From positions 30,732 through 60,213 of the forward strand of contig JBHLKN010000001.1 in assembly GCA_048886645.1 (NCBI GenBank): a stretch of DNA of 29,482 nt, in the 5' to 3' direction. Positions 3,353-21,473 of this stretch are shown here, one piece after another; the stretch's first letter is position 1, and each line of letters begins with the position of its first letter. A program made the position numbers and the translations under genes. Origin of the DNA: Candidatus Hodarchaeota archaeon. GTDB taxonomy: Archaea > Asgardarchaeota > Wukongarchaeia > Wukongarchaeales > Wukongarchaeaceae. Under the pieces are notes generated by a model. The model saw only the letters and a list, made by a program, of their open reading frames with translations. It was not told where the DNA came from and did no database searches.

Positions 3353-4159
3353 TTATGCACTCATTGTTCCTATCTGTTCTTCAAGCTCTTGAGATTTTTT
3401 AATAAATATTTGAGCTGCTTGTCTTACAATACTTTCTGGAGGTATATTGCCTAACCCTTCTACTGTAAAAATAAACTTCGTATCATCTTCCTTAATCTTT
3501 ATAGCATCAAAATCACAAGCTTCGACACACGCATCGCATAGCGTGCATTCCAGAGGATCAAAACAAACTATTTCATCCCCTTCACGCTTAAGAATCTGTT
3601 TCGGACAAGCTTCAATGCATTCTTCACAAAGTGTGCATTTTTCAGAATCAAAATCAAACTCCATACAATATTTATAAGCGGAAACGGTTACAGATTGCCA
3701 TTTTGCGTGTTGTTTTCCAGTGCCCATCTTCGCAAAGGCTTCAAGCTCAATTTTCTGTCTAGGGACAAGCTTTACTATGACTATATCAGGAGAAACAGGC
3801 ACTACTTCAGGATCAGAACTCTCAAGATCCCCAGAATAAACTACTGTAATACCTTCTCCTGCCTCCTTTTTCAAAGTAAAAGTCACGTTACATTTTGGAC
3901 ATCCTACCCCCTGGCACTCACACTCCTCACTAAATCCGTACTTTCCTTCAGGCGTAGTTAACGGTATCAAACCCAGCCTATGGGCGAGTACCTCGTCAAA
4001 AAGAGACGAATTATTCTCCACAATAACAACTTCATCTATCGCCATCACAGGTACTTCTGCTATAATAGTCCTACGCAAACTGTTAATAAAAGCAGGAGAA
4101 ACACCTTCTATAATAAACCTTATAAAATTGCCATCCCGCTCAATAATCTCTACATCCAT
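3353..4159 (-). CDS. rpoD: DNA-directed RNA polymerase subunit D (Rpo3) with a ferredoxin-like 4Fe-4S insertion
   Basis: 268 aa. Contains FIIEGVSPAFINSLRRTIIAEVPVMAIDEV and two Cys clusters, CTLCEECIEACP and CTLCDACVEAC. Lies upstream of L18e as in other archaea. Confidence 0.9.
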   Translation of the reverse strand: MDVEIIERDGNFIRFIIEGVSPAFINSLRRTIIAEVPVMAIDEVVIVENNSSLFDEVLAHRLGLIPLTTPEGKYGFSEECECQGVGCPKCNVTFTLKKEAGEGITVVYSGDLESSDPEVVPVSPDIVIVKLVPRQKIELEAFAKMGTGKQHAKWQSVTVSAYKYCMEFDFDSEKCTLCEECIEACPKQILKREGDEIVCFDPLECTLCDACVEACDFDAIKIKEDDTKFIFTVEGLGNIPPESIVRQAAQIFIKKSQELEEQIGTMSA

Positions 4160-9860: not shown

Positions 9861-10307
9861 ATGTTTGTAAGACGTTGGCTCAGTCCAAGCATGCTCAACG
9901 TAACACTCTTCATCACCACCATGATGCTCCTAACACAAATACCAACTACATATTACGCCCTCCACATCCTAGAACTAAACGCCCAAGAAAACTGGCCAGT
10001 CTACACCCTACTACCCCTCGGAACAGTCCTCATACTAACAATCTCCACAATAAACCTCTCCGAAATGCTAATACTAAAAATAAAAGGCTTCGTAGACGAA
10101 AAAGAAGCAATCCTAATAACCATAATGATAACCACCATATTCTTCTACATCGGATTCTTCCTCATCGGAACAGAAATACTACAAGAAATAAACTTCATAC
10201 AAGACCGAAGAAACGTATACAAACTAGGCATCTACTACCTAACAGGAGTAACACTCGCCCTAACAACAAACAACACCATATACTCACGCCTAGAAAAAAA
10301 ACACTAA
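9861..10307 (+). CDS. Small integral membrane protein (about 4 TM), unknown function
   Basis: 148 aa with four hydrophobic stretches separated by charged loops. AAGGTG lies 8 nt upstream of the ATG. Caveat: this stretch has few G or T, so stop codons are rare and a second frame (9851..10375) is also open. Confidence 0.5.
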   Translation: MFVRRWLSPSMLNVTLFITTMMLLTQIPTTYYALHILELNAQENWPVYTLLPLGTVLILTISTINLSEMLILKIKGFVDEKEAILITIMITTIFFYIGFFLIGTEILQEINFIQDRRNVYKLGIYYLTGVTLALTTNNTIYSRLEKKH

Positions 10308-10383
10308 AAAAAAAGAAAAAAAATAAAAACAACACAAAACAAATAAAACAAAAACAACCAAAAAATAAAAACTAGAAAAAACG

Positions 10384-10396
10384 CCGAGGTAGCTTT
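10384..10396 (+). repeat. Left copy of a 13-bp direct repeat, GCCGAGGTAGCTT (orphan copy of tRNA nt 1-13)
   Basis: Exact match to 12538-12550, the first 13 nt of the tRNA. Sits exactly at the junction between the A/C-rich and T/G-rich tracts and is followed by T8. Confidence 0.6.
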
Positions 10397-10689
10397 TTTT
10401 TCTTCGTTTTTTATGTTGGGGTGGGTTTCCGCTGTGTTTTTTTGTTTTTCTCTGCGGAGATCTGTTTTTGTTTTTTGCTGTGTTGGTTAAAATATGTTTT
10501 TTCGGTGTTTCTTTTCAGGGGGGTTAAATGGGATTACACTGGTTTTTGGTGGTTGAATTTGTGGTTTTTTTACTTTTTCTTTTTTTTATTCGTTTGAAAG
10601 CCTAATATATTCACTTTTGTCCTCCTCTCCATAAAGCTTATATATGGCATATATTATATGTATGATCTATATTTTATGGGGTAAAAAAG

Positions 10690-12552
10690 ATGCGAAGAAC
10701 AGTAACAGAAGGGGGACTTTTGACCTTTCAAGGCAAACTTTTAGAGGTAAAAGAAGAAGACAGTGTTAAGATTGATGATCTTATGAGGCGGTTTCAATCT
10801 GCAAAAAGAACTGCTTTCAAAAGGCTTGTAGAAGGTGGAAATAAGAATAAAGGTTTAGAAAAAGAGCTTGTTGAGAACTTTATTCTAAATTCGGAATATG
10901 CAAGATCTGCTATCTCTGATGCGAAAGCGATAATGGATAGTCAAAGGGAACTATTACCTTACTATATTGCGAATTATGAGGGGAAGATAAGAAAGAGTAA
11001 GAAAAAGTTGGAAAAATGTCGTTCTGAGCTGAAGCAAAAAGGTCTATTCTCAAGAATAAAGAAGTATGAGGAGAAAAGAGATCTTCTAAAACTGTATTTA
11101 GAGAATGAAACCATACCTAGGGTGATATTTGGAGGGAGAAGGAACTTTGAGCTTTTCATAAAGGGAGAGATAACGAGGGAAGAATGGAGAGCGTTAAGAA
11201 CAAACCAAGTTTACAGTAAAGGCAGAGCCGTTGGAAAGGGTAATAATAACTTAAGGGTAACTTACGAAGGAGATGGTGAAAGAAATCAGTTCTACTTATG
11301 GATAAACTATCCTTCTAAAAAAGTGGGAAAGTGGGGGAGTAAACAGAAGTATAAACTTTTTGTTCCAGAACCTTTCAAGCCATACATTATAAAAAGCTTG
11401 GAGACTGAGGAAAAAGAGTTTGGAAAAAAGAAAAAGTCTAAGACTTGTACTAAAAAAGCGCACACAGTAAGGGTAATTCGCAGGAAAGGAGGGGAATATT
11501 ATGTTTTCATAACTGTGGAGGTTTTTTGTCCAGAAGAAGCTTTATCGAACGCCAAAGAAAAAGGTTTGTTGGGTTTAGATGTTAACACTAAGGGTATAGG
11601 GGCAGCAATAGTTCTCCCCAACGGTAACCTAAGAGCGCACAGATGGTTTCCATGCCACGAACTTCTATATGTAAGAAACGAAAAACGCTCGCACTTGATA
11701 GGAAATCTTTTGGTTAAGGTTTTCAGGTGGGCTAAAGGTTTCGGTGTAAACACTGTTGTTTCTGAGAGTTTTAACAGGTTTAAACGAGATCATGATACCT
11801 ATGGGAAGTTTAACCGTGCAACGCATAACTTCTGTAAGGAGAAGATGGTTAGAACCATTAAAAGTAGAGCAGTAAAAGAGAACTTTGTTCACATAGAAGT
11901 TTTCCCAGCTTACAGCTCCATAATAGGAGCAATAAAATATCAAAAAATATATGGCTTGAGTACTCATGAGGCAGCCGCTTTTATAATAGGCAGAAGGGGT
12001 TTAGGATACAACAAGGAAAGGATTCCGAAAGAATTTTCCGAGAGCTTAAAGCCAGAGGGGCGTCGCCGATGGAAGGATGACGTTGATCCTTTGGCAAGCA
12101 TCTGCCGCCAGTGGGGCGGTCTATGGAAACAAGTTTCGAAGATAAAAAACAGTTTCTTCGAAACAACAAGGGAGATACCTTTAAATCATCGCAAATTCAT
12201 AAGGCATCTCCTTATTAAAGCAAGTGGCGCTGACAGCGCGCTTCAGCTCGCGCTCTCCTACCTAAAGAAAAAGGGAGAGACGGAAGTAGAGGCAACCAAA
12301 CCGTTGTCGAGGTTCAGATCCTACCTCGACAATCTAATAAGTTTGGTCCTCGAAAACGCTGAAGAACTACGTGAGAATCGTAGCACTAGACGCAAACAGT
12401 CGCTATGCATCGTCGTAGACTTTATAAACAATAAAGGATTTTCTACCTTCACAAATCTACGATCTGAAGAAAACACCCCCAAAGGATCAAAGTCTCTAAA
12501 ACGGCATATAAGGGCTTTCAAGGGCGGTTTTCGAGCGGCCGAGGTAGCTTAG
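10690..12552 (+). CDS. TnpB/Cas12-superfamily-like RuvC-fold protein; atypical (no Zn-ribbon, degenerate RuvC-III, long C-terminal extension)
   Basis: 620 aa. RuvC-I-like GLLGLDVNTKGIGAAIV (D297, nt 11578-80). RuvC-II-like NTVVSESFNRF (E359, nt 11764-66). VFPAYSSIIG corresponds to the PAYTSQ box of TnpB. STHEAAAFIIGRRGLG corresponds to the D.NAA.NI..RG box, with T/H-E in place of the catalytic D. There is no CxxC pair between these boxes. TTATATAT at 10638-45 and GGGGT precede the ATG. Confidence 0.6.
   Translation: MRRTVTEGGLLTFQGKLLEVKEEDSVKIDDLMRRFQSAKRTAFKRLVEGGNKNKGLEKELVENFILNSEYARSAISDAKAIMDSQRELLPYYIANYEGKIRKSKKKLEKCRSELKQKGLFSRIKKYEEKRDLLKLYLENETIPRVIFGGRRNFELFIKGEITREEWRALRTNQVYSKGRAVGKGNNNLRVTYEGDGERNQFYLWINYPSKKVGKWGSKQKYKLFVPEPFKPYIIKSLETEEKEFGKKKKSKTCTKKAHTVRVIRRKGGEYYVFITVEVFCPEEALSNAKEKGLLGLDVNTKGIGAAIVLPNGNLRAHRWFPCHELLYVRNEKRSHLIGNLLVKVFRWAKGFGVNTVVSESFNRFKRDHDTYGKFNRATHNFCKEKMVRTIKSRAVKENFVHIEVFPAYSSIIGAIKYQKIYGLSTHEAAAFIIGRRGLGYNKERIPKEFSESLKPEGRRRWKDDVDPLASICRQWGGLWKQVSKIKNSFFETTREIPLNHRKFIRHLLIKASGADSALQLALSYLKKKGETEVEATKPLSRFRSYLDNLISLVLENAEELRENRSTRRKQSLCIVVDFINNKGFSTFTNLRSEENTPKGSKSLKRHIRAFKGGFRAAEVA
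12538..12550 (+). repeat. Right copy of the 13-bp direct repeat (functional tRNA nt 1-13)
   Basis: Identical to 10384-10396. Also forms the last four sense codons and part of the TAG stop of the 620-aa ORF (GCC GAG GTA GCT TAG). Confidence 0.6.
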
Positions 12553-12651
12553 CCCGGGAGCAGTATAGGTGGCATAATACGACACTTTCTCTCCGATAGC
12601 GCTGGACTGAAGATCCAGTTGTCGCTGGTTCAAATCCGGCCCTCGGCGCCA
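12538..12651 (+). tRNA. tRNA-Phe (anticodon GAA), CCA-encoded, with a non-canonical ~37-39 nt intron in the D-arm
   Basis: Acceptor stem GCCGAGG (12538-44) / CCTCGGC (12641-47). T-arm GCTGG-TTCAAAT-CCGGC (12624-40). Anticodon arm CTGGA-CTGAAGA-TCCAG (12602-18) with GAA at 12609-11 and G37. Variable loop TTGTC. D-arm 5' part GCTT-AGCCCGGGA-G, then an insert at about 12561-12597, then AGC-G26. G73 followed by CCA. Confidence 0.85.
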
Positions 12652-12729
12652 CTCCCACTTAAACTCTAAATTCTGTCTATTTATCATTAAAGAAGAAAAT
12701 TTTTAAACCAAGAAAACTGTTATGTTATC

Positions 12730-12880
12730 TGCAACGCCTGCTGGAAGTTAAGCCCAGTCACGTTTTGCCGAGTACTTCTGTGCGCGAGTCAGCGGGAAAG
12801 GTAGAAAGTTGTAGTTTCGGCCACGGCCAAAGCGCTGGGGAAACACCCGATCCCAGCCGAACTCGGAAACAGGCGTTGTA
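12730..12880 (+). other. Processing stem with a bulge-helix-bulge-like motif enclosing the 5S rRNA
   Basis: 11-bp stem TGCAACGCCTG (12730-40) / CAGGCGTTGTA (12870-80, one G-U). Then a 4-bp helix CTGG (12741-44) / TCGG (12863-66, two G-U). 3-nt bulges AAG (12745-47) and AAA (12867-69) lie on opposite strands. Confidence 0.7.
12747..12868 (+). rRNA. rrf: 5S rRNA, circularly permuted gene (3' part encoded first, 5' part second; 122 nt between the predicted BHB cuts)
   Basis: 12820-12868 is GCCACGGCCAAAGCGCTGGGGAAACACCCGATCCCAGCCGAACTCGGAA, which matches the archaeal 5S 5' third. 12747-12815 is GTTAAGCCCAGTCACGTTTTGCCGAGTACTTCTGTGCGCGAGTCAGCGGGAAAGGTAGAAAGTTGTAGT, which matches the 3' two-thirds. 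A UUCG loop at 12816-19 joins the natural ends. Confidence 0.85.
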
Positions 12881-12885
12881 TATGT

Positions 12886-12893
12886 CTTTTTTT
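12886..12893 (+). terminator. Oligo-T tract downstream of the 5S processing stem (archaeal-type terminator candidate)
   Basis: CTTTTTTT lies a few nt after the 3' arm of the stem, and further T-runs follow. Confidence 0.4.
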
Positions 12894-13013
12894 GCTTTTT
12901 CGTCTGTTTTTGTTTGTTTTTGAATGGTTTTATGCTGTTGTGGTGGCTTTCTTTTTTTTTTGAGGTAGTAGTACTACTTTGGTATTACTTTTATTTTTAT
13001 ATGAAATGGCGGT

Positions 13014-13028
13014 TTTTCCTATGGAAAA
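13014..13028. promoter_or_regulatory. ORB-core-like dyad TTTTCC-TAT-GGAAAA upstream of orc1/cdc6
   Basis: Perfect 6-bp inverted arms. Resembles the TTCCA-N-TGGAAA core of archaeal mini-ORB elements. Lies about 65 bp upstream of the orc1 ATG. Only a single copy was seen. Confidence 0.25.
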
Positions 13029-13091
13029 TATTAATATACTCTTTATGTTTTTTGTTTTCTTACATTTTTCTTTTTGGTGGGTCGGTGTGGT

Positions 13092-14312
13092 ATGGCAAAT
13101 GTGATAGATAATCTAGATGAGATGTTCGAAAATTATTTGTCAGGGTCGAAAATTTTTAAAAATCGTGATACGATGCGTCCTTCTTATGTGCCAAGGAAGC
13201 TTCCTCATAGAACGGAGAAGGCTTTGGATTTGGGGAGAATTTTAGCACCGGCTTTAAGGGGTGAAATTCCTTCTAATGCTTTATTATATGGGAAGCCTGG
13301 TACTGGTAAGACCGCGGTAACTCAGTATGTTCTTCAAAAAATGAATGCTAAATGTGTCGAGGCAGGGATACCTCTCACCTCTACTTATTTTAATTGTCAA
13401 CTTGTTGATACAAATTATCGTGTTTTAACTTCTCTTTGTCAGGAAATTGAAGTAGAAGTGCCTATAACTGGGCTTCCAACTGTCGAAGTGTATTCACGGT
13501 TTACCAGAGCTTTGGATGCTAAGGATTTGCAGATGATAATAATACTTGATGAGATTGATGCTCTTGTAAAGAAGAGTGGTAGTGAGGTTCTTTATAGTTT
13601 GACGAGGATTAATACGGATCTTAAAAGAGGGAAGGTGAGTCTTGTTGGTATCTCGAATGATACGCGTTTCAAGGAGCTTTTGGATCCTCGTGTTTTGAGT
13701 AGTTTAAGTGAGGAGGAGATTGTTTTTCCGCCTTATAACGCCACAGAACTTAAAGATATTCTGCGGGAACGTGCTTTAATAAGTTTTAATGAGGGAGTAA
13801 TTGATGATGGCGTGATCGGTCTATGTGCGGCTTTAGCTGCAAAAGAGCATGGTGATGCAAGGAGGGCTCTTGACTTATTAAGGGTTGCAGGGGAGCTTGC
13901 GGAGAGATCAGGCTCGCAAAAAGTAATAGGAGATCATGTAAAAGAGGCTCAACGGGTTATAGAGCGAAACATGGTTGAAGAGGTCATAAAAACTCTTCCT
14001 CTCCAATCAAAGCTCGTGCTTTTCAGCATATACTTACTTGAAAAAGAAAACCTTCATGATATTTACACGGGCCAACTTTACAACACGTATCATGAAGTTG
14101 CCCGTGAAATGCGGGTGGAGTCTTTGACTCAAAGAAGAATTAGTGATCTCATAAATGAGCTGGACATGATGGGTATTATCAATGCATTAGTGATCTCTCG
14201 TGGGAGGGGTGGTCGTACACGGAAAATAAATCTGAGCATTCCTATACGCCAGTTAAAATCGTTCATTGAACATGATATCAGGTTTTCCGCTTATCTAGAT
14301 CTCATACCTTGA
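13092..14312 (+). CDS. cdc6: Orc1/Cdc6 replication initiator (AAA+ plus C-terminal winged helix)
   Basis: Contains LPHRTEKALDLGRIL, Walker A LLYGKPGTGKTA, Walker B MIIILDEIDAL, sensor GISND and GDARRALDLLRVAGE, plus a wH tail. ATG at 13092 preceded by GGTG. The track's TTG start at 13074 is less likely. Confidence 0.93.
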   Translation: MANVIDNLDEMFENYLSGSKIFKNRDTMRPSYVPRKLPHRTEKALDLGRILAPALRGEIPSNALLYGKPGTGKTAVTQYVLQKMNAKCVEAGIPLTSTYFNCQLVDTNYRVLTSLCQEIEVEVPITGLPTVEVYSRFTRALDAKDLQMIIILDEIDALVKKSGSEVLYSLTRINTDLKRGKVSLVGISNDTRFKELLDPRVLSSLSEEEIVFPPYNATELKDILRERALISFNEGVIDDGVIGLCAALAAKEHGDARRALDLLRVAGELAERSGSQKVIGDHVKEAQRVIERNMVEEVIKTLPLQSKLVLFSIYLLEKENLHDIYTGQLYNTYHEVAREMRVESLTQRRISDLINELDMMGIINALVISRGRGGRTRKINLSIPIRQLKSFIEHDIRFSAYLDLIP

Positions 14313-17582: not shown

Positions 17583-19670
17583 TCAGCTTTTCTTGGCTTT
17601 GATCTTCTCTAAAGCTTGTTTCACTGTTAGCCTAAAATAGTTATCTTCATCCTTCAAAGCTATTATGAGAGGTCTTATTGCAGGTTCTCCAAGCTTAACA
17701 AGAGCTTCTATAGCTTCCGCTCTAACAGAGGGATGTTTATCTTTTAGTGCTTGAATTAGGGGATCTATAGCTCTTACATCTCCGATCTTGCTAAGGGCCC
17801 ATGCTGCATTTATTCTAACTTCTTTATCGTCGTCTTTCAGGGCTTTTATGAGGGGTTCAACAGTCCTCATATCCCCTATCTTACCAAGGGCTAATGTTGC
17901 TGTCCATCTGACATCACTGTATTTATCTTTTAAAGCATTGATGAGTGGTTTTAAAGCCCTTAAATCGCCTATTTCACCAAGAACTGATGCAGCAGTCCAT
18001 CTAACATGCATATCTTTATCATTTAATGCTTTTATGAGGGGGTCAATAGCCCTTTTATCACCTATCTCACCAAGGGCTCCTGCTGCATTTCTTCGAACTG
18101 CATCATATTCATCTTTTAGAGCTTGAATAAGAGGTTCAACAGCTCTCACATCCCCTATCTCACCGAGGGCCCATGCTGCTCGCCGTCTAACAGCTCTATG
18201 TTCATCATTTAGGGCTTTTATGAGAGGATCTACCGCTGATTCTCCTATATTTACAAGAGCTTTTGATGCTCCTCTCTTAACATCTTTATCCTCATCTTTA
18301 ATAGCCTCCAATAGGTGTTCAAGCAACGCTGTTCCTGTCTTTCCAAGAGCTTCTATTGCTTTTCTTCGAACAGCGTCATCTTTTTTCTTTAAAGCTTGAA
18401 TAACAGGATTTACAGCCTTTACACCCTCTACATTTTCAGGGGCATTTACTGCTCTTGTTTCAACACGTTGATCTTTTTCTTTCAGAGTTTGTGTATGAGG
18501 TTTTACAACTCCTAGATACCCTAAACTGCCAAGAGCAGATTCAACCACCACTCTAACAGTAGGCTCTTCATCATTTAAAGCTTCCATGAGGGGGCCAATA
18601 GCCCTTTCATCCCCTATCTTACCAAGAGCTATTGCTACAATTTCTCGAACACCGCTATCTTCATCATTTAAAGCTTCCATGAGGGATTCAACAGCCCGCG
18701 AACCCCCTATTCTTCCAAGAGCTCCTGCTGCTTGTTTTCGACTATCACTATCATAATCGTGCAAAATTTGAATAAGGGGATCAACAGCCCTCATATCACC
18801 TATTCTACCAAGATTCCATATTGCTGTCAAACGAACAATCCTATTTTCATCTTTCAGAGCTTGGATGAGAGATTCAAGTTCGCGTTCTGGTATCTTTTCA
18901 GGGGCTTTTACTTCTCTTGTTTCAACACTTTTATCTTGATCTTCTAGAGTTTGTACGACGGATTTTATGACCTTTTTATCTCCTATTTTATCGAGAACTG
19001 ATTCTGCTGCCAGTTGAACATCTTGGTTTACGTCTTCTAAGCAGCGAGTAATAGGTTCAACTGCTCGTGTATCACCTATTTTTCCAAGAGCTTCTACAGC
19101 ATATTTTCGCACAACAGGAGTTTCATCCTTTAGGATCTCGATGAGGGGTTCAACAGCTTGCTTATCACCTATTTTTCCGAGTGCCCATGCTGCATATCGT
19201 TTCATATTCGTATCCGGATCTTTCAAAGCTTGGGAGAGTGATTTTAAAATTTTAGGATCTTTTAAATTGCCAAGGGCTGCTACGGCATGTCTTCGAACAC
19301 GGCTATCCTCATCCTTTAAAGCCTTGATAAATGGATCTACTGCCCTCATGTCCCCTATTTCTCCAAGAATACATATTGCCCTCCATCTAACGTCCGCATC
19401 TTTATGGTTCAGAAGCTGTAGTAAGGGTTTAACTGCTGGGTTTCTTATCCTTACAAGGGCTTTTGCTGCTCCCTCTCGAATACTTAAATCTTTACCCTTC
19501 AAGGCTTTTATAAGGGCTTTAACAGTATTTATATTCCTTAACTTTCCGAGGGTCCATATTGCCCTCCATCTGACATCAATATCTTCATCTCTTAAATCTT
19601 GGATCAGTTGTTCTATTTCCTCCTCAGAGACATCGTTTTTCGTTTTAATCGTTTTATCGGTTATTACCAT
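17583..19670 (-). CDS. PBS-lyase-type HEAT-repeat protein (about 22 units in three blocks)
   Basis: 695 aa. The blocks are separated by a repeated linker: [19 protein letters not shown] and [19 protein letters not shown]. Confidence 0.9.
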
Positions 19671-19748
19671 ATTATTAATCCTTCTTAACGAGTAATTACC
19701 CGCGCATTATAAGTAACCTATATTATTATTAAAATTTTTATATCATTT

Positions 19749-21473
19749 TCAGCTTTCCTTTTGAGCTTTAATTTTCTCTATAGCCTTTTTGGCAGCTTCA
19801 TGGACAGTTTCATTTTTATCATTAAGAAGTTGAAGGAGGGGGTTTATTGCCTTTGAATCGCCTATCCTACCAAGAATTGTAGCTGCATATATTCGAACAT
19901 AATCATCTTCATTTTTCAAAGCCTCTATTAGGGGATCAATAGCTTTCATAGGCTCTATTTTAGCAAGGGCTTCTGCTGCATATTTACTTACAAGATTTTC
20001 TTCCTTCAAAGTATAAATTAGGGGAATAACAGCCCTCGAATCACCAATCTCACCAAGAGCTCTTGCCACCATCCATCGAACATCGATGTTAATGTCATTC
20101 AAAGCATAAATGAGGGGAATAACAGCCCTCGAATCACCAATCTCACCAAGAGCTCTTGCCGCTCTCCATCGAACATCCCAATTTTTGTATAGTAAAAATT
20201 TAATAAGTTTTTCTAACGCTTCTGAATAACCCATTTTACCAAGGGCACATAATATTTCAATTCGAACATGGATATCTTTACGTTCAATTTCAAAAGCGTT
20301 TAATAGAGGCTCGAAAGCCCTCTTATCTCCTATCTCACCAAGAGCCCACGCTACATACTCCCGAACACGCTTACTTCCATCCATCAAAGCCTCAATTAGG
20401 AGCTCAACAGCCCTTGGATCACCTATCTCACCAAGAGATCTTGCGGCATAAGCTCGAACGTTCAAATCTCTATCTTTTAAGGCTTTTATGAGGGGATTTA
20501 TTGCTGGTTCTCCAATCTTACCAAGGGCTTTTACCGCACTCCATTGAACAGACCAATTTTTATCCTTAAAAACCTGAATGAGGGGCTCAACAGCCCTAAA
20601 ATCCCCTATCCTACCAAGCTCCAACGCTGCTCTCCGTCGAACATGCCAATCATCATCCTTCAAAGCCTTAATGAGAGGATCGACTGATGGTTCTCCTATT
20701 CTGCCAAGAGCCTGTGTTGCCCTCATTCTAACCCGCTTATCTTTATCCTTAAGAGTTTTAATGAGGGGGCCTATAGCCCTTGCATCACCTATTCTGCCAA
20801 GGGCTGATTCTACCACTAACCGAACAGCTTGGTCTTCATCTTCTAAAAGCTGGATAAGTGGATCTATAGCTCTTGTATCTTCTATCCTGCCAAGGGCTCC
20901 TGCCGCATACCTTCTAACGCCGGTATCTTCATCTTTAAGTGCCAGAATTAGATGATCTATTGCTCCAATATCGCCTATTTTTCCAAGTGCCCACGCAGCA
21001 TATCTTCTAGTATCAATATCTTCATCCTTCAAAGCTTGGACAAGGGATTCTACGACCCTAGAAACCCCCATATTACCAAGGGCTACAATGGCATATCTTC
21101 GAACTTCGATATCTTCGTCCGTCAAAGCTTTGATCAGAGGTTCTACAGCCTTCGAATCGCCTATTCCACCTAGAATCCACGCTGCTCTTCTTCGAACATC
21201 CGCATCTTCATGTTTAAGAATTATTAGGAGGGTGTCAACAGCTAGTTCCCCCATTTTAACAAGAGTTTTTGCAGCACCCTCCCGAACAACCCAATCATCC
21301 CCCACCAAAGCCTCTATAAGAGCTTCAACAACCGTTACATCCTTCATATTACCAAGTATCCATGCAGCCCTCCATCGAACATCAATATCTTCATCTTTTA
21401 AATCTTGAATTAGACGTTCTATTTCCTCAGAGACTTCTTTTTCTTTTTTAATTGGTTTATCGGTTATTTCCAT
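19749..21473 (-). CDS. PBS-lyase-type HEAT-repeat protein (about 18 units)
   Basis: 574 aa. The N-terminal ~130 aa are closely similar to the 307-aa and 695-aa paralogs ([26 protein letters not shown]...). Confidence 0.9.
   Translation of the reverse strand: MEITDKPIKKEKEVSEEIERLIQDLKDEDIDVRWRAAWILGNMKDVTVVEALIEALVGDDWVVREGAAKTLVKMGELAVDTLLIILKHEDADVRRRAAWILGGIGDSKAVEPLIKALTDEDIEVRRYAIVALGNMGVSRVVESLVQALKDEDIDTRRYAAWALGKIGDIGAIDHLILALKDEDTGVRRYAAGALGRIEDTRAIDPLIQLLEDEDQAVRLVVESALGRIGDARAIGPLIKTLKDKDKRVRMRATQALGRIGEPSVDPLIKALKDDDWHVRRRAALELGRIGDFRAVEPLIQVFKDKNWSVQWSAVKALGKIGEPAINPLIKALKDRDLNVRAYAARSLGEIGDPRAVELLIEALMDGSKRVREYVAWALGEIGDKRAFEPLLNAFEIERKDIHVRIEILCALGKMGYSEALEKLIKFLLYKNWDVRWRAARALGEIGDSRAVIPLIYALNDINIDVRWMVARALGEIGDSRAVIPLIYTLKEENLVSKYAAEALAKIEPMKAIDPLIEALKNEDDYVRIYAATILGRIGDSKAINPLLQLLNDKNETVHEAAKKAIEKIKAQKES
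20020..20160 (-). repeat. Intragenic tandem repeat: 48-bp exact copies spaced 93 bp (one HEAT unit) apart
   Basis: AGGGGAATAACAGCCCTCGAATCACCAATCTCACCAAGAGCTCTTGCC occurs at 20020-20067 and again at 20113-20160. Both copies encode ARALGEIGDSRAVIPLIY. Confidence 0.9.

Follow-up and report, generated by a model that had tools for sequence, protein, structure and literature searches.

The stretch of DNA analysed here (the window: 29,482 nucleotides of contig JBHLKN010000001.1, assembly GCA_048886645.1, from an Asgard archaeon of the Wukongarchaeaceae) contains at positions 10396-12537 one copy of a transposase-less mobile element of the IS1341 style, which ends directly at nt 1 of a tRNA-Phe gene and carries a single gene for a TnpB-like protein. 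In the two species of the genus Wukongarchaeum that we compared, such elements insert sequence-specifically at nt 1 of tRNAs starting with GCSGRGGT, and the local tRNA sequence from nt 1 to nt 10-14 is duplicated (8 nt at a look-alike site outside tRNA genes), so that the tRNA gene stays whole. Taken as a whole, we favour with moderate confidence the explanation that a TnpB-like element without transposase inserts at tRNA nt 1, duplicates its local target and selects this target by what may be an RNA guide.

Results

The element in the window is flanked by two exact copies of the 13-mer GCCGAGGTAGCTT, at 10383-10395 and 12538-12550. An earlier interpretation made without database searches (the sequence-only reading) had noticed both copies correctly but had placed the left one a single base too far to the right (10384-96). 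It had also warned that occurrence of the 13-mer at many unrelated sites would speak against an insertion; no third exact occurrence was found in the 1.93-Mb assembly to which the window belongs (G000, an incomplete metagenome-assembled genome, MAG, of 87% completeness). With up to 2 mismatches allowed, 4 matches to the 13-mer were observed in the window compared to 0.36 in window shuffles. The right copy is identical to nt 1-13 of tRNA-Phe(GAA), as had been recognized, and the gene on the forward strand (12538-12651) consists of exon 1 (12538-12560), a 37-nt intron in the D-arm (12561-12597), exon 2 (12598-12648) and an encoded CCA (12649-12651). Because of this intron, the gene was overlooked by ARAGORN and misaligned by Rfam, and removal of approximately 37 nt from the D-arm yielded a standard tRNA-Phe call. 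The borders of the intron were fixed by a contig from a mangrove metagenome, in which 12560 is fused to 12598 while the right end of the element is still present upstream. Among populations, the intron, which lies between tRNA positions 22 and 23, is thus a presence/absence polymorphism at the DNA level. The gene at 12538-12651 is the single tRNA-Phe detected in the whole assembly, and its junction with the right end of the element also occurs in other sediment and mangrove metagenomes. The left copy on the same strand is an orphan that presumably lies downstream of the former promoter region of tRNA-Phe.

Further copies with 80-84% identity were found on the G000 contigs C121, C59 and C81, fragments of element ends on C59, C105 and C75, and additional copies in G001, a MAG of the sister species Candidatus Wukongarchaeum yapensis (92% complete). 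As ARAGORN returned no tRNA for either the window or 25 loci, which we attribute to non-canonical introns, tRNA genes were detected with Rfam, by intron removal and with a home-made intron-tolerant finder. In many tRNA genes of this genus (G000 and G001), two or three introns interrupt non-canonical positions, the T-loop among them, and standard finders overlook most of these genes (examples are L023:3338-3496 and L003:3476-3628). We compared 17 right ends, 15 from G000 and G001 and two from JGI metagenomes, and all except one reach nt 1 of a tRNA after a variable tail of 1-4 nt. They adjoin at least ten different tRNA genes, many of them with multiple introns, and all acceptor stems are intact. 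A copy of 10-14 nt from the local tRNA's 5' end stands in front of nine of the left ends and is followed by a T-run. The search for other copies suggested by the sequence-only reading thus returned copies with equivalent flanks, and its proposal of a mobile element in the 5' portion of a tRNA gene that remains intact despite the insertion is borne out by the recurring architecture and by tRNAs that are complete from nt 1 onward. The same recurrence gives significance to the 13-mer pair; the accompanying caution that 29 kb should contain some 13-mer pair by chance was fair, but the alternative of a coincidental pair around a resident gene upstream of the tRNA can be dismissed with near certainty, given at least ten tRNAs with this architecture, the occupied and empty sites described below and only two occurrences of the 13-mer in 1.93 Mb.

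The repeat varies in sequence among the copies, in step with the local tRNA (GCGGGGGTGGCCGA, GCGGGGGTAGCC, GCGGGGGTGTC, GCGGGGGTGAC). The left copy matches the local tRNA at 13/13 positions in the window, 11/12 at C121, 9/10 at the G001 orthologue C89, 10/11 at C59a, 11/12 at G001:C3, 14/14 at C189 and 10/11 at C268. Pairs of left copy and local tRNA read GCGAGGGTAGCC and GCGGGGGTAGCC, CGGGGGTGTC and GCGGGGGTGTCC, GCGGAGGTGAC and GCGGGGGTGACC, or twice GCGGGGGTGGCCGA. On C81, the left copy GCGGGGGTAGCC matches the tRNA found at the orthologous G001:C3 site, and on C75 it is an 11-nt fragment matching a tRNA on C119. Variable repeats that each match the local tRNA indicate a target duplication and not a constant attP core. 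The claim that the element carries a fixed, att-like copy of nt 1-13 therefore did not hold in its strict form, although a second copy of the 5' end indeed keeps the tRNA whole. Orthologous left copies of the two species have diverged (GCGAGGGTAGCC-T8 versus GCAGGGGTAG-T9), indicating that the orphan copy decays and erodes into the T-run, which explains part of the variation in repeat length (8-14).

An occupied and an empty allele were found for the site G001:C189, where the element has GCGGGGGTGGCCGA on both sides. At the orthologous position in G000 (C1:15951), a flank with 94% identity joins the intact tRNA directly, without the element. The empty site that the sequence-only reading had proposed to look for was therefore obtained at a different tRNA gene; for tRNA-Phe none was found, as G001 has contig breaks to either side of the locus and lacks an assembled tRNA-Phe, and no contig skipping 10396-12537 was present in four metagenome runs, in which the left junction was uncovered. 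The sole right end away from a tRNA belongs to an intergenic, internally deleted copy of about 500 bp (G001:C77) flanked by duplicated CGAGGTAG, which corresponds to nt 3-10 of tRNA-Phe (8 nt), and the orthologous site in G000:C18 is empty. At the G000 site C93 (~4100-4130, minus strand), the tRNA GCGGGGGTGACCGA is preceded by a mere 12-nt relic of the right end, TGTTTTCCAGCG. The counterpart in the sister species is a copy of about 365 bp resembling a miniature inverted-repeat transposable element (MITE), with right-end module, T/G-rich left end and left tRNA fragment, and the comparison of the two shows a route by which copies decay. Among more distant homologues (G013 with 35% identity, other Asgard archaea with 27-37%, bacterial or metagenomic sequences with 40-42%), none adjoins a tRNA by eye, Rfam or regular-expression search.

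A crude, intron-tolerant census of G000 yielded about 35 tRNA genes, of which 11 have the 5' end GCSGRGGT. A right end or a remnant of it was found at 8 of these 11, or 8 of the 10 that could be scored; the other three comprise one that is empty in G000 yet occupied in G001, one empty gene and one cut by a contig end. None of the approximately 24 tRNAs with other 5' ends (GGGCCCGT.., GCGCCGGT.., GCCCCGGT..) carries a right end, indicating that target choice follows the sequence of the first eight bases and not the status as a tRNA gene.

The right end is formed by a module of about 215 nt (12323-12537, forward strand), which overlaps the open reading frame (ORF) over the last ~70 codons, ends 0 nt from tRNA nt 1 and is kept in all 14 aligned copies, including those without ORF. 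Its conserved core begins at TTTGGTCCTCGAAAAC, at about 12340 (consensus TTCGGTCCTCG). RNAalifold predicted a multi-helix structure, with compensatory changes in 9 pairs by RNAalifold and pair counting, and none of 500 shuffled alignments equalled the observed values. Most clearly, covariation (CG, UA and AU variants) links the variable tail AG-NN in front of tRNA nt 1 to an NN-CT located about 135 nt upstream, and the resulting helix extends into nt 1-2 of the tRNA. In codons 546-616, the frequencies of variable sites at the three codon positions were 0.41/0.32/0.41, compared to 0.31/0.24/0.65 in codons 1-450. This even spread indicates that the end of the ORF is constrained as nucleic acid and not as protein. 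The structure matched no Rfam family. We infer from these features that the right end may be an omega-RNA-like scaffold, with the 5' end of the tRNA in the position of the TnpB guide. At its start, the module (consensus GGTCCTCG; window copy TGGTCCTCG) can pair with the GRGG at tRNA nt 4-7, with U opposite G or A. We considered TTTATAAA at 12424-12431 as a TATA box and dropped it, because it lies inside a conserved long helix.

The only ORF between the repeats, P0001 (10690-12552, forward strand), has 620 codons, and its stop codon TAG (12550-12552) is drawn from tRNA nt 13-15; the sequence-only reading had seen the last codons and the stop as built from the right repeat. The label TnpB-like given there was also correct and can now be refined. 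Pfam had no match for the ORF or its homologues and NCBIfam gave weak TnpB-related matches, whereas a phmmer search against 1.8 billion representatives returned 1400 homologues, typically of 480-520 aa, which cover residues 10-460 and for which precomputed annotation lists PF27229 (SSO2105_N). One distant homologue (L055) is located after an IS607-type serine recombinase gene. The family profile matches Cas12f/TnpB chains at E values of 1e-9 to 1e-7. An AlphaFold2 model built from the alignment (mean predicted local distance difference test score, pLDDT, 79.8; residues 1-450 confident) retrieved Cas12f, Cas12k and CasX in Foldseek at probability 1.0, with TM scores normalized by target of up to 0.53; a model from the single sequence had a pLDDT of 35 and was of no use. 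The protein has the RuvC (RNase H-like) fold and the WED/REC-like N-terminal part of the TnpB/Cas12 superfamily. In an alignment of 44 members, D297 is invariant, E359 and H426 almost so, with H426 in the motif SxHxAAAxVIxRR where TnpB reads DxNAAxNI. The third position of the catalytic D-E-D triad of TnpB/Cas12 is thus His and not Asp, and no zinc-finger Cys pattern is conserved between RuvC-II and RuvC-III in this alignment. By the codon-position test, constraint at the protein level is limited to about the first 450-545 residues. By its RuvC-III Asp-to-His exchange and the missing C4 zinc finger, P0001 is assigned from its sequence features to clade RIIIr-4, which was defined by the same two changes and takes in archaeal TnpBs linked to ribbon-helix-helix (RHH)/MazE proteins (Altae-Tran et al., 2023; PMC10691335). 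An RHH-like ORF of 73 aa with a weak match to PF01402 (E 0.039) is present in the leader of three copies (C59a, G001:C110 and L062).

In the window copy, the T/G-rich left end and leader (10396-10689, forward strand) contains no ORF and hence no RHH gene. It is conserved among the copies and begins with a T-run directly after the left repeat (10396-10401), with more T-runs further on; these T-runs likely act as archaeal terminators, as judged from their sequence. The leader also contains the conserved motif GTTGGGGTGGGTTTCCGCTGTG (10415-10436), a short hairpin with the arms TCCGC and GCGGA (10427-31/10454-58) and a conserved block (10589-10668) with the TATA-like AAGCTTATATATGG, all on the forward strand, the last of which may serve as promoter. 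Terminal inverted repeats were not seen when the element ends were inspected by eye. MITE-like derivatives of about 450-500 bp, composed of left and right end, are L045 (G001:C3) and L047 (G001:C77), and one metagenome contig fuses 10630 to 12307, close to short CTCTCC repeats.

The same left end and promoter block are shared by three canonical zinc-finger TnpB elements (402-436 aa) in G000, located at C15 ~19500-21150 and ~29700-31330 (minus strand) and at C17 ~28000-29540, which have the right end ..GTAGTTCAC. They occupy non-tRNA sites with direct repeats of 10-11 nt (TTAGATTTTA, AAGTGGTGGCG, GTGGTTTTGTT), each preceded by a T-rich pentamer. Such repeats are unexpected for IS200/IS605-type elements, and approximately 17 other canonical TnpB right ends had none.

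A metagenome copy at the tRNA GCCGGGGTAACC and the G001:C189 copy (L066:1-1125 versus L010:2231-3365), which are located at different tRNA genes, are identical at 999 of 1000 positions and then drop to about 80% identity in the last 45 nt. This sharp drop inside the right-end module indicates that copies exchange sequence by recombination or gene conversion. Because gene conversion disturbs it, the star-like tree of right ends is uninformative on the relatedness of donor and target.

No integrase or recombinase gene is present within the element, in agreement with the sequence-only reading, which had noted the absence of a tyrosine or serine recombinase. Neither Y1 transposase (PF01797; with G000 87% complete), nor serine recombinase/resolvase (PF00239), nor Cas1 (PF01867) was found in G000, G001 or G002, although a divergent Asgard Cas1 could evade the Pfam model.

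Discussion

In the explanation that we favour, the target would be chosen by base pairing, either of a segment derived from the flank or of the invariant CCUC at the start of the right-end module with tRNA nt 4-7. New copies could then arise from a staggered 11-14 bp cut, or a nick could prime the short-homology copying of a donor copy, and established copies would later swap sequence by gene conversion. After insertion, the native tRNA promoter would yield only a short transcript that ends in the T-runs of the element, so that the tRNA would have to be transcribed from inside the element and be freed by RNase P at nt 1. This would include the sole tRNA-Phe detected in the assembly.

Several observations weigh against this explanation. 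To our knowledge, every characterized TnpB requires a target-adjacent motif (TAM). No conserved motif was seen 5' of tRNA nt 1 among the copies, and the bases beside the left end vary (..TAGCTT, ..TAGCC, ..GTGTC, ..GCCGA, ..GGTAG), with no fixed TAM among them. A guide derived from the flank would meet seed mismatches at nt 3, 9 and 10, where the targeted tRNAs differ, and the alternative CCUC:GRGG pairing comprises only 4 bp and shows no covariation. Transcript ends, processing by RNase P and any guide are deduced from the DNA. Gene conversion between copies makes real transposition events hard to tell apart, and a trans-acting transposase could have been missed because G000 and G001 are incomplete (87% and 92%). 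Finally, the canonical elements on C15 and C17 show that duplication tracks the type of left end and neither this protein nor tRNAs.

The last two points lead to the strongest competitor, which we regard as possible but distinctly less probable: insertion by an enzyme acting in trans, either a DDE transposase or an aCas1-type, Cas1-like casposase, that is unsampled or borne by a virus or plasmid. Such an enzyme would read GCSGRGGT by protein-DNA contacts and make a staggered cut of 11-14 bp, whereas the TnpB-like protein and the right-end RNA would have a role only in maintenance or homing, or would be a toxin-like cargo. Both repeat copies match the local tRNA, like an ordinary target-site duplication, and duplication follows the left-end type over two classes of TnpB. 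Moreover, casposons duplicate 14-15 bp, and Cas1-TnpB transposons flanked by repeats have been described in Asgard archaea (PMC10691335). However, neither Cas1 nor Y1 transposase nor resolvase matched in the three genomes searched, no terminal inverted repeats were seen by eye, and the length of the duplication ranges from 8 to 14, in part by erosion into the T-run. In addition, the duplication at G001:C77 stops where the similarity to tRNA-Phe stops and not at a fixed distance.

A bolder reading, which we put forward as speculative and rather unlikely, holds that the D-E-H TnpB-like protein and the right-end RNA are themselves an RNA-directed, transposase-free insertion machinery. They would copy the element into any tRNA gene whose 5' end pairs with the right-end RNA; the tRNA would then share a transcript with the guide scaffold, from which RNase P would cut it.

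Integration by the logic of att sites appears improbable. In this model, an excised circle with one copy of tRNA nt 1 to ~13 recombines within a short identity, by short-homology or site-specific recombination, and the tRNA is rebuilt by a right copy that the element brings along. The repeat at G001:C77 would fit, since it is confined to the stretch identical to tRNA-Phe and its right copy has an extra C that agrees with nt 2 of tRNA-Phe but not with the target, as it also would if the right copy were templated by the donor. Recombination between the direct repeats would restore an intact tRNA as at the empty site, and copies do recombine with one another. Against this, the repeats differ and have tRNA-specific bases on both sides (e.g. 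GTGGCCGA, GTGTC, GTGAC), none of the occupied tRNAs has a chimeric acceptor or D stem, a shared core of at least 7 bases is not conserved among the targets, and a recombinase gene was found neither in the element nor in the genomes. A retrotransposon-like mechanism, considered for the minus-strand poly-A and the variable duplication, was set aside, as it would require an antisense RNA intermediate and the T-run is itself conserved within the left end.

In its anatomy, the element resembles IS1341-type members of the IS200/IS605 group (e.g. ISDra2), which also have a single gene of the TnpB superfamily, asymmetric ends without inverted repeats and internally deleted, MITE-like derivatives. Their structured omega RNA, which lies over the 3' end of the ORF and stops at the right boundary with the flank in guide position, may have its counterpart in the right-end module. 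However, canonical IS1341-type elements do not duplicate their target and insert 3' of a fixed TAM of 4-5 nt, whereas the element described here is targeted to tRNA 5' ends with a duplication of 8-14 nt, no evident TAM and no Y1 TnpA found. The IS607 family is distinguished by a serine-recombinase TnpA, and PF00239 was not found in the genomes searched. At the protein level, the element compares with clade RIIIr-4 and the archaeal RHH/MazE-TnpBs (PMC10691335), which share the conserved His in place of the RuvC-III Asp, the lack of the C4 zinc finger, the small upstream RHH gene present in some of our copies and a long 3' region that could encode an RNA. The RHH-TnpB group was described as immobilized and toxin-antitoxin-like, without mention of any link to tRNA (the term tRNA occurs 0 times; PMC10691335). 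In contrast, the elements described here are multi-copy and vary in presence between two species, and no RHH gene accompanies the window copy.

Among published arrangements, the tRNA-Thr locus of Caldiarchaeum subterraneum comes closest, where a 27-nt 5' tRNA fragment, a multi-copy insertion of ~1.9 kb and an intact tRNA follow each other in the same order as here; the locus varies within a natural population and was linked to the gain of a tRNA intron (Sugahara et al., 2012; PMC3293823). Unlike here, its 813-bp ORF was not identified as TnpB, a single tRNA family is concerned and no RNA was described at the right end. For Ty1/Ty3, the Dictyostelium TRE elements and Dada DNA transposons, too, tRNA genes are safe places to land in a compact genome. 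The eukaryotic retrotransposons find sites upstream or downstream of the gene by recognizing the Pol III machinery, whereas the choice here accords with the DNA sequence of nt 1-8, and the element joins the gene exactly at nt 1. Casposons are likewise archaeal, have long target duplications (14-15 bp) and prefer tRNA genes, but they target the 3' end; in the present case the 5' end is used, no Cas1 was found and no inverted repeats were seen, although an association of Cas1 with TnpB has been reported for Asgard archaea (PMC10691335). Integrators that use tRNAs as att sites have an integrase gene and a constant attP core, both of which are missing here.

Elements with tnpB as their only gene abound, and their movement in the absence of a transposase is a standing question. 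A literature search that did not extend to all journals returned neither a TnpB element linked to the 5' ends of tRNAs nor duplications of this kind for any TnpB-type element. The protein clade itself has already been published. The family offers readable evidence on this question, with a defined target, a duplication, an empty and an occupied allele, a look-alike site and what may be an RNA scaffold fused to a tRNA. It shows tRNA genes serving as safe harbours for mobile elements in archaea, as they do in yeast and amoebae, with a choice that here follows sequence and not the transcription machinery, and it connects such elements with the tRNA genes of this Asgard lineage, which are heavily disrupted and rich in introns. 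If insertion were indeed directed by RNA, this would explain the movement of 'orphan' tnpB elements and represent a natural fusion of guide and tRNA.

Neighbourhood of the element

Between tRNA-Phe and orc1/cdc6, the region 12725-12885 reads like a circularly permuted 5S rRNA gene, with a part resembling the 3' half (GGAAGTTAAGCC...GCGCGAG...GGGAAAGG) in front of a part resembling the 5' half (GGCCACGGCCAAAGCGCTGGGGAAACACCCGATCCCAGCCGAACTCGGAA). The two halves are bracketed by a 14-nt inverted repeat (12727-40/12870-83), and the Rfam 5S model scored only 17.9 bits. Three other Asgard genomes have two adjacent sub-threshold 5S matches each, and our literature search returned no report of such a permuted arrangement. 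The Orc1/Cdc6 gene (13074-14312) follows just downstream, after a T/G-rich tract (12886-13070). A replication origin may be located near this gene, although clear origin-recognition-box repeats were not found. To the left of the element lies an ORF of 148 aa (9861-10307, forward strand) that is G-poor, with a composition opposite to that of the neighbouring genes. Its product is predicted to be membrane-like and matched no family, and in G001 the ORF is 85% conserved up to the end of the contig there.

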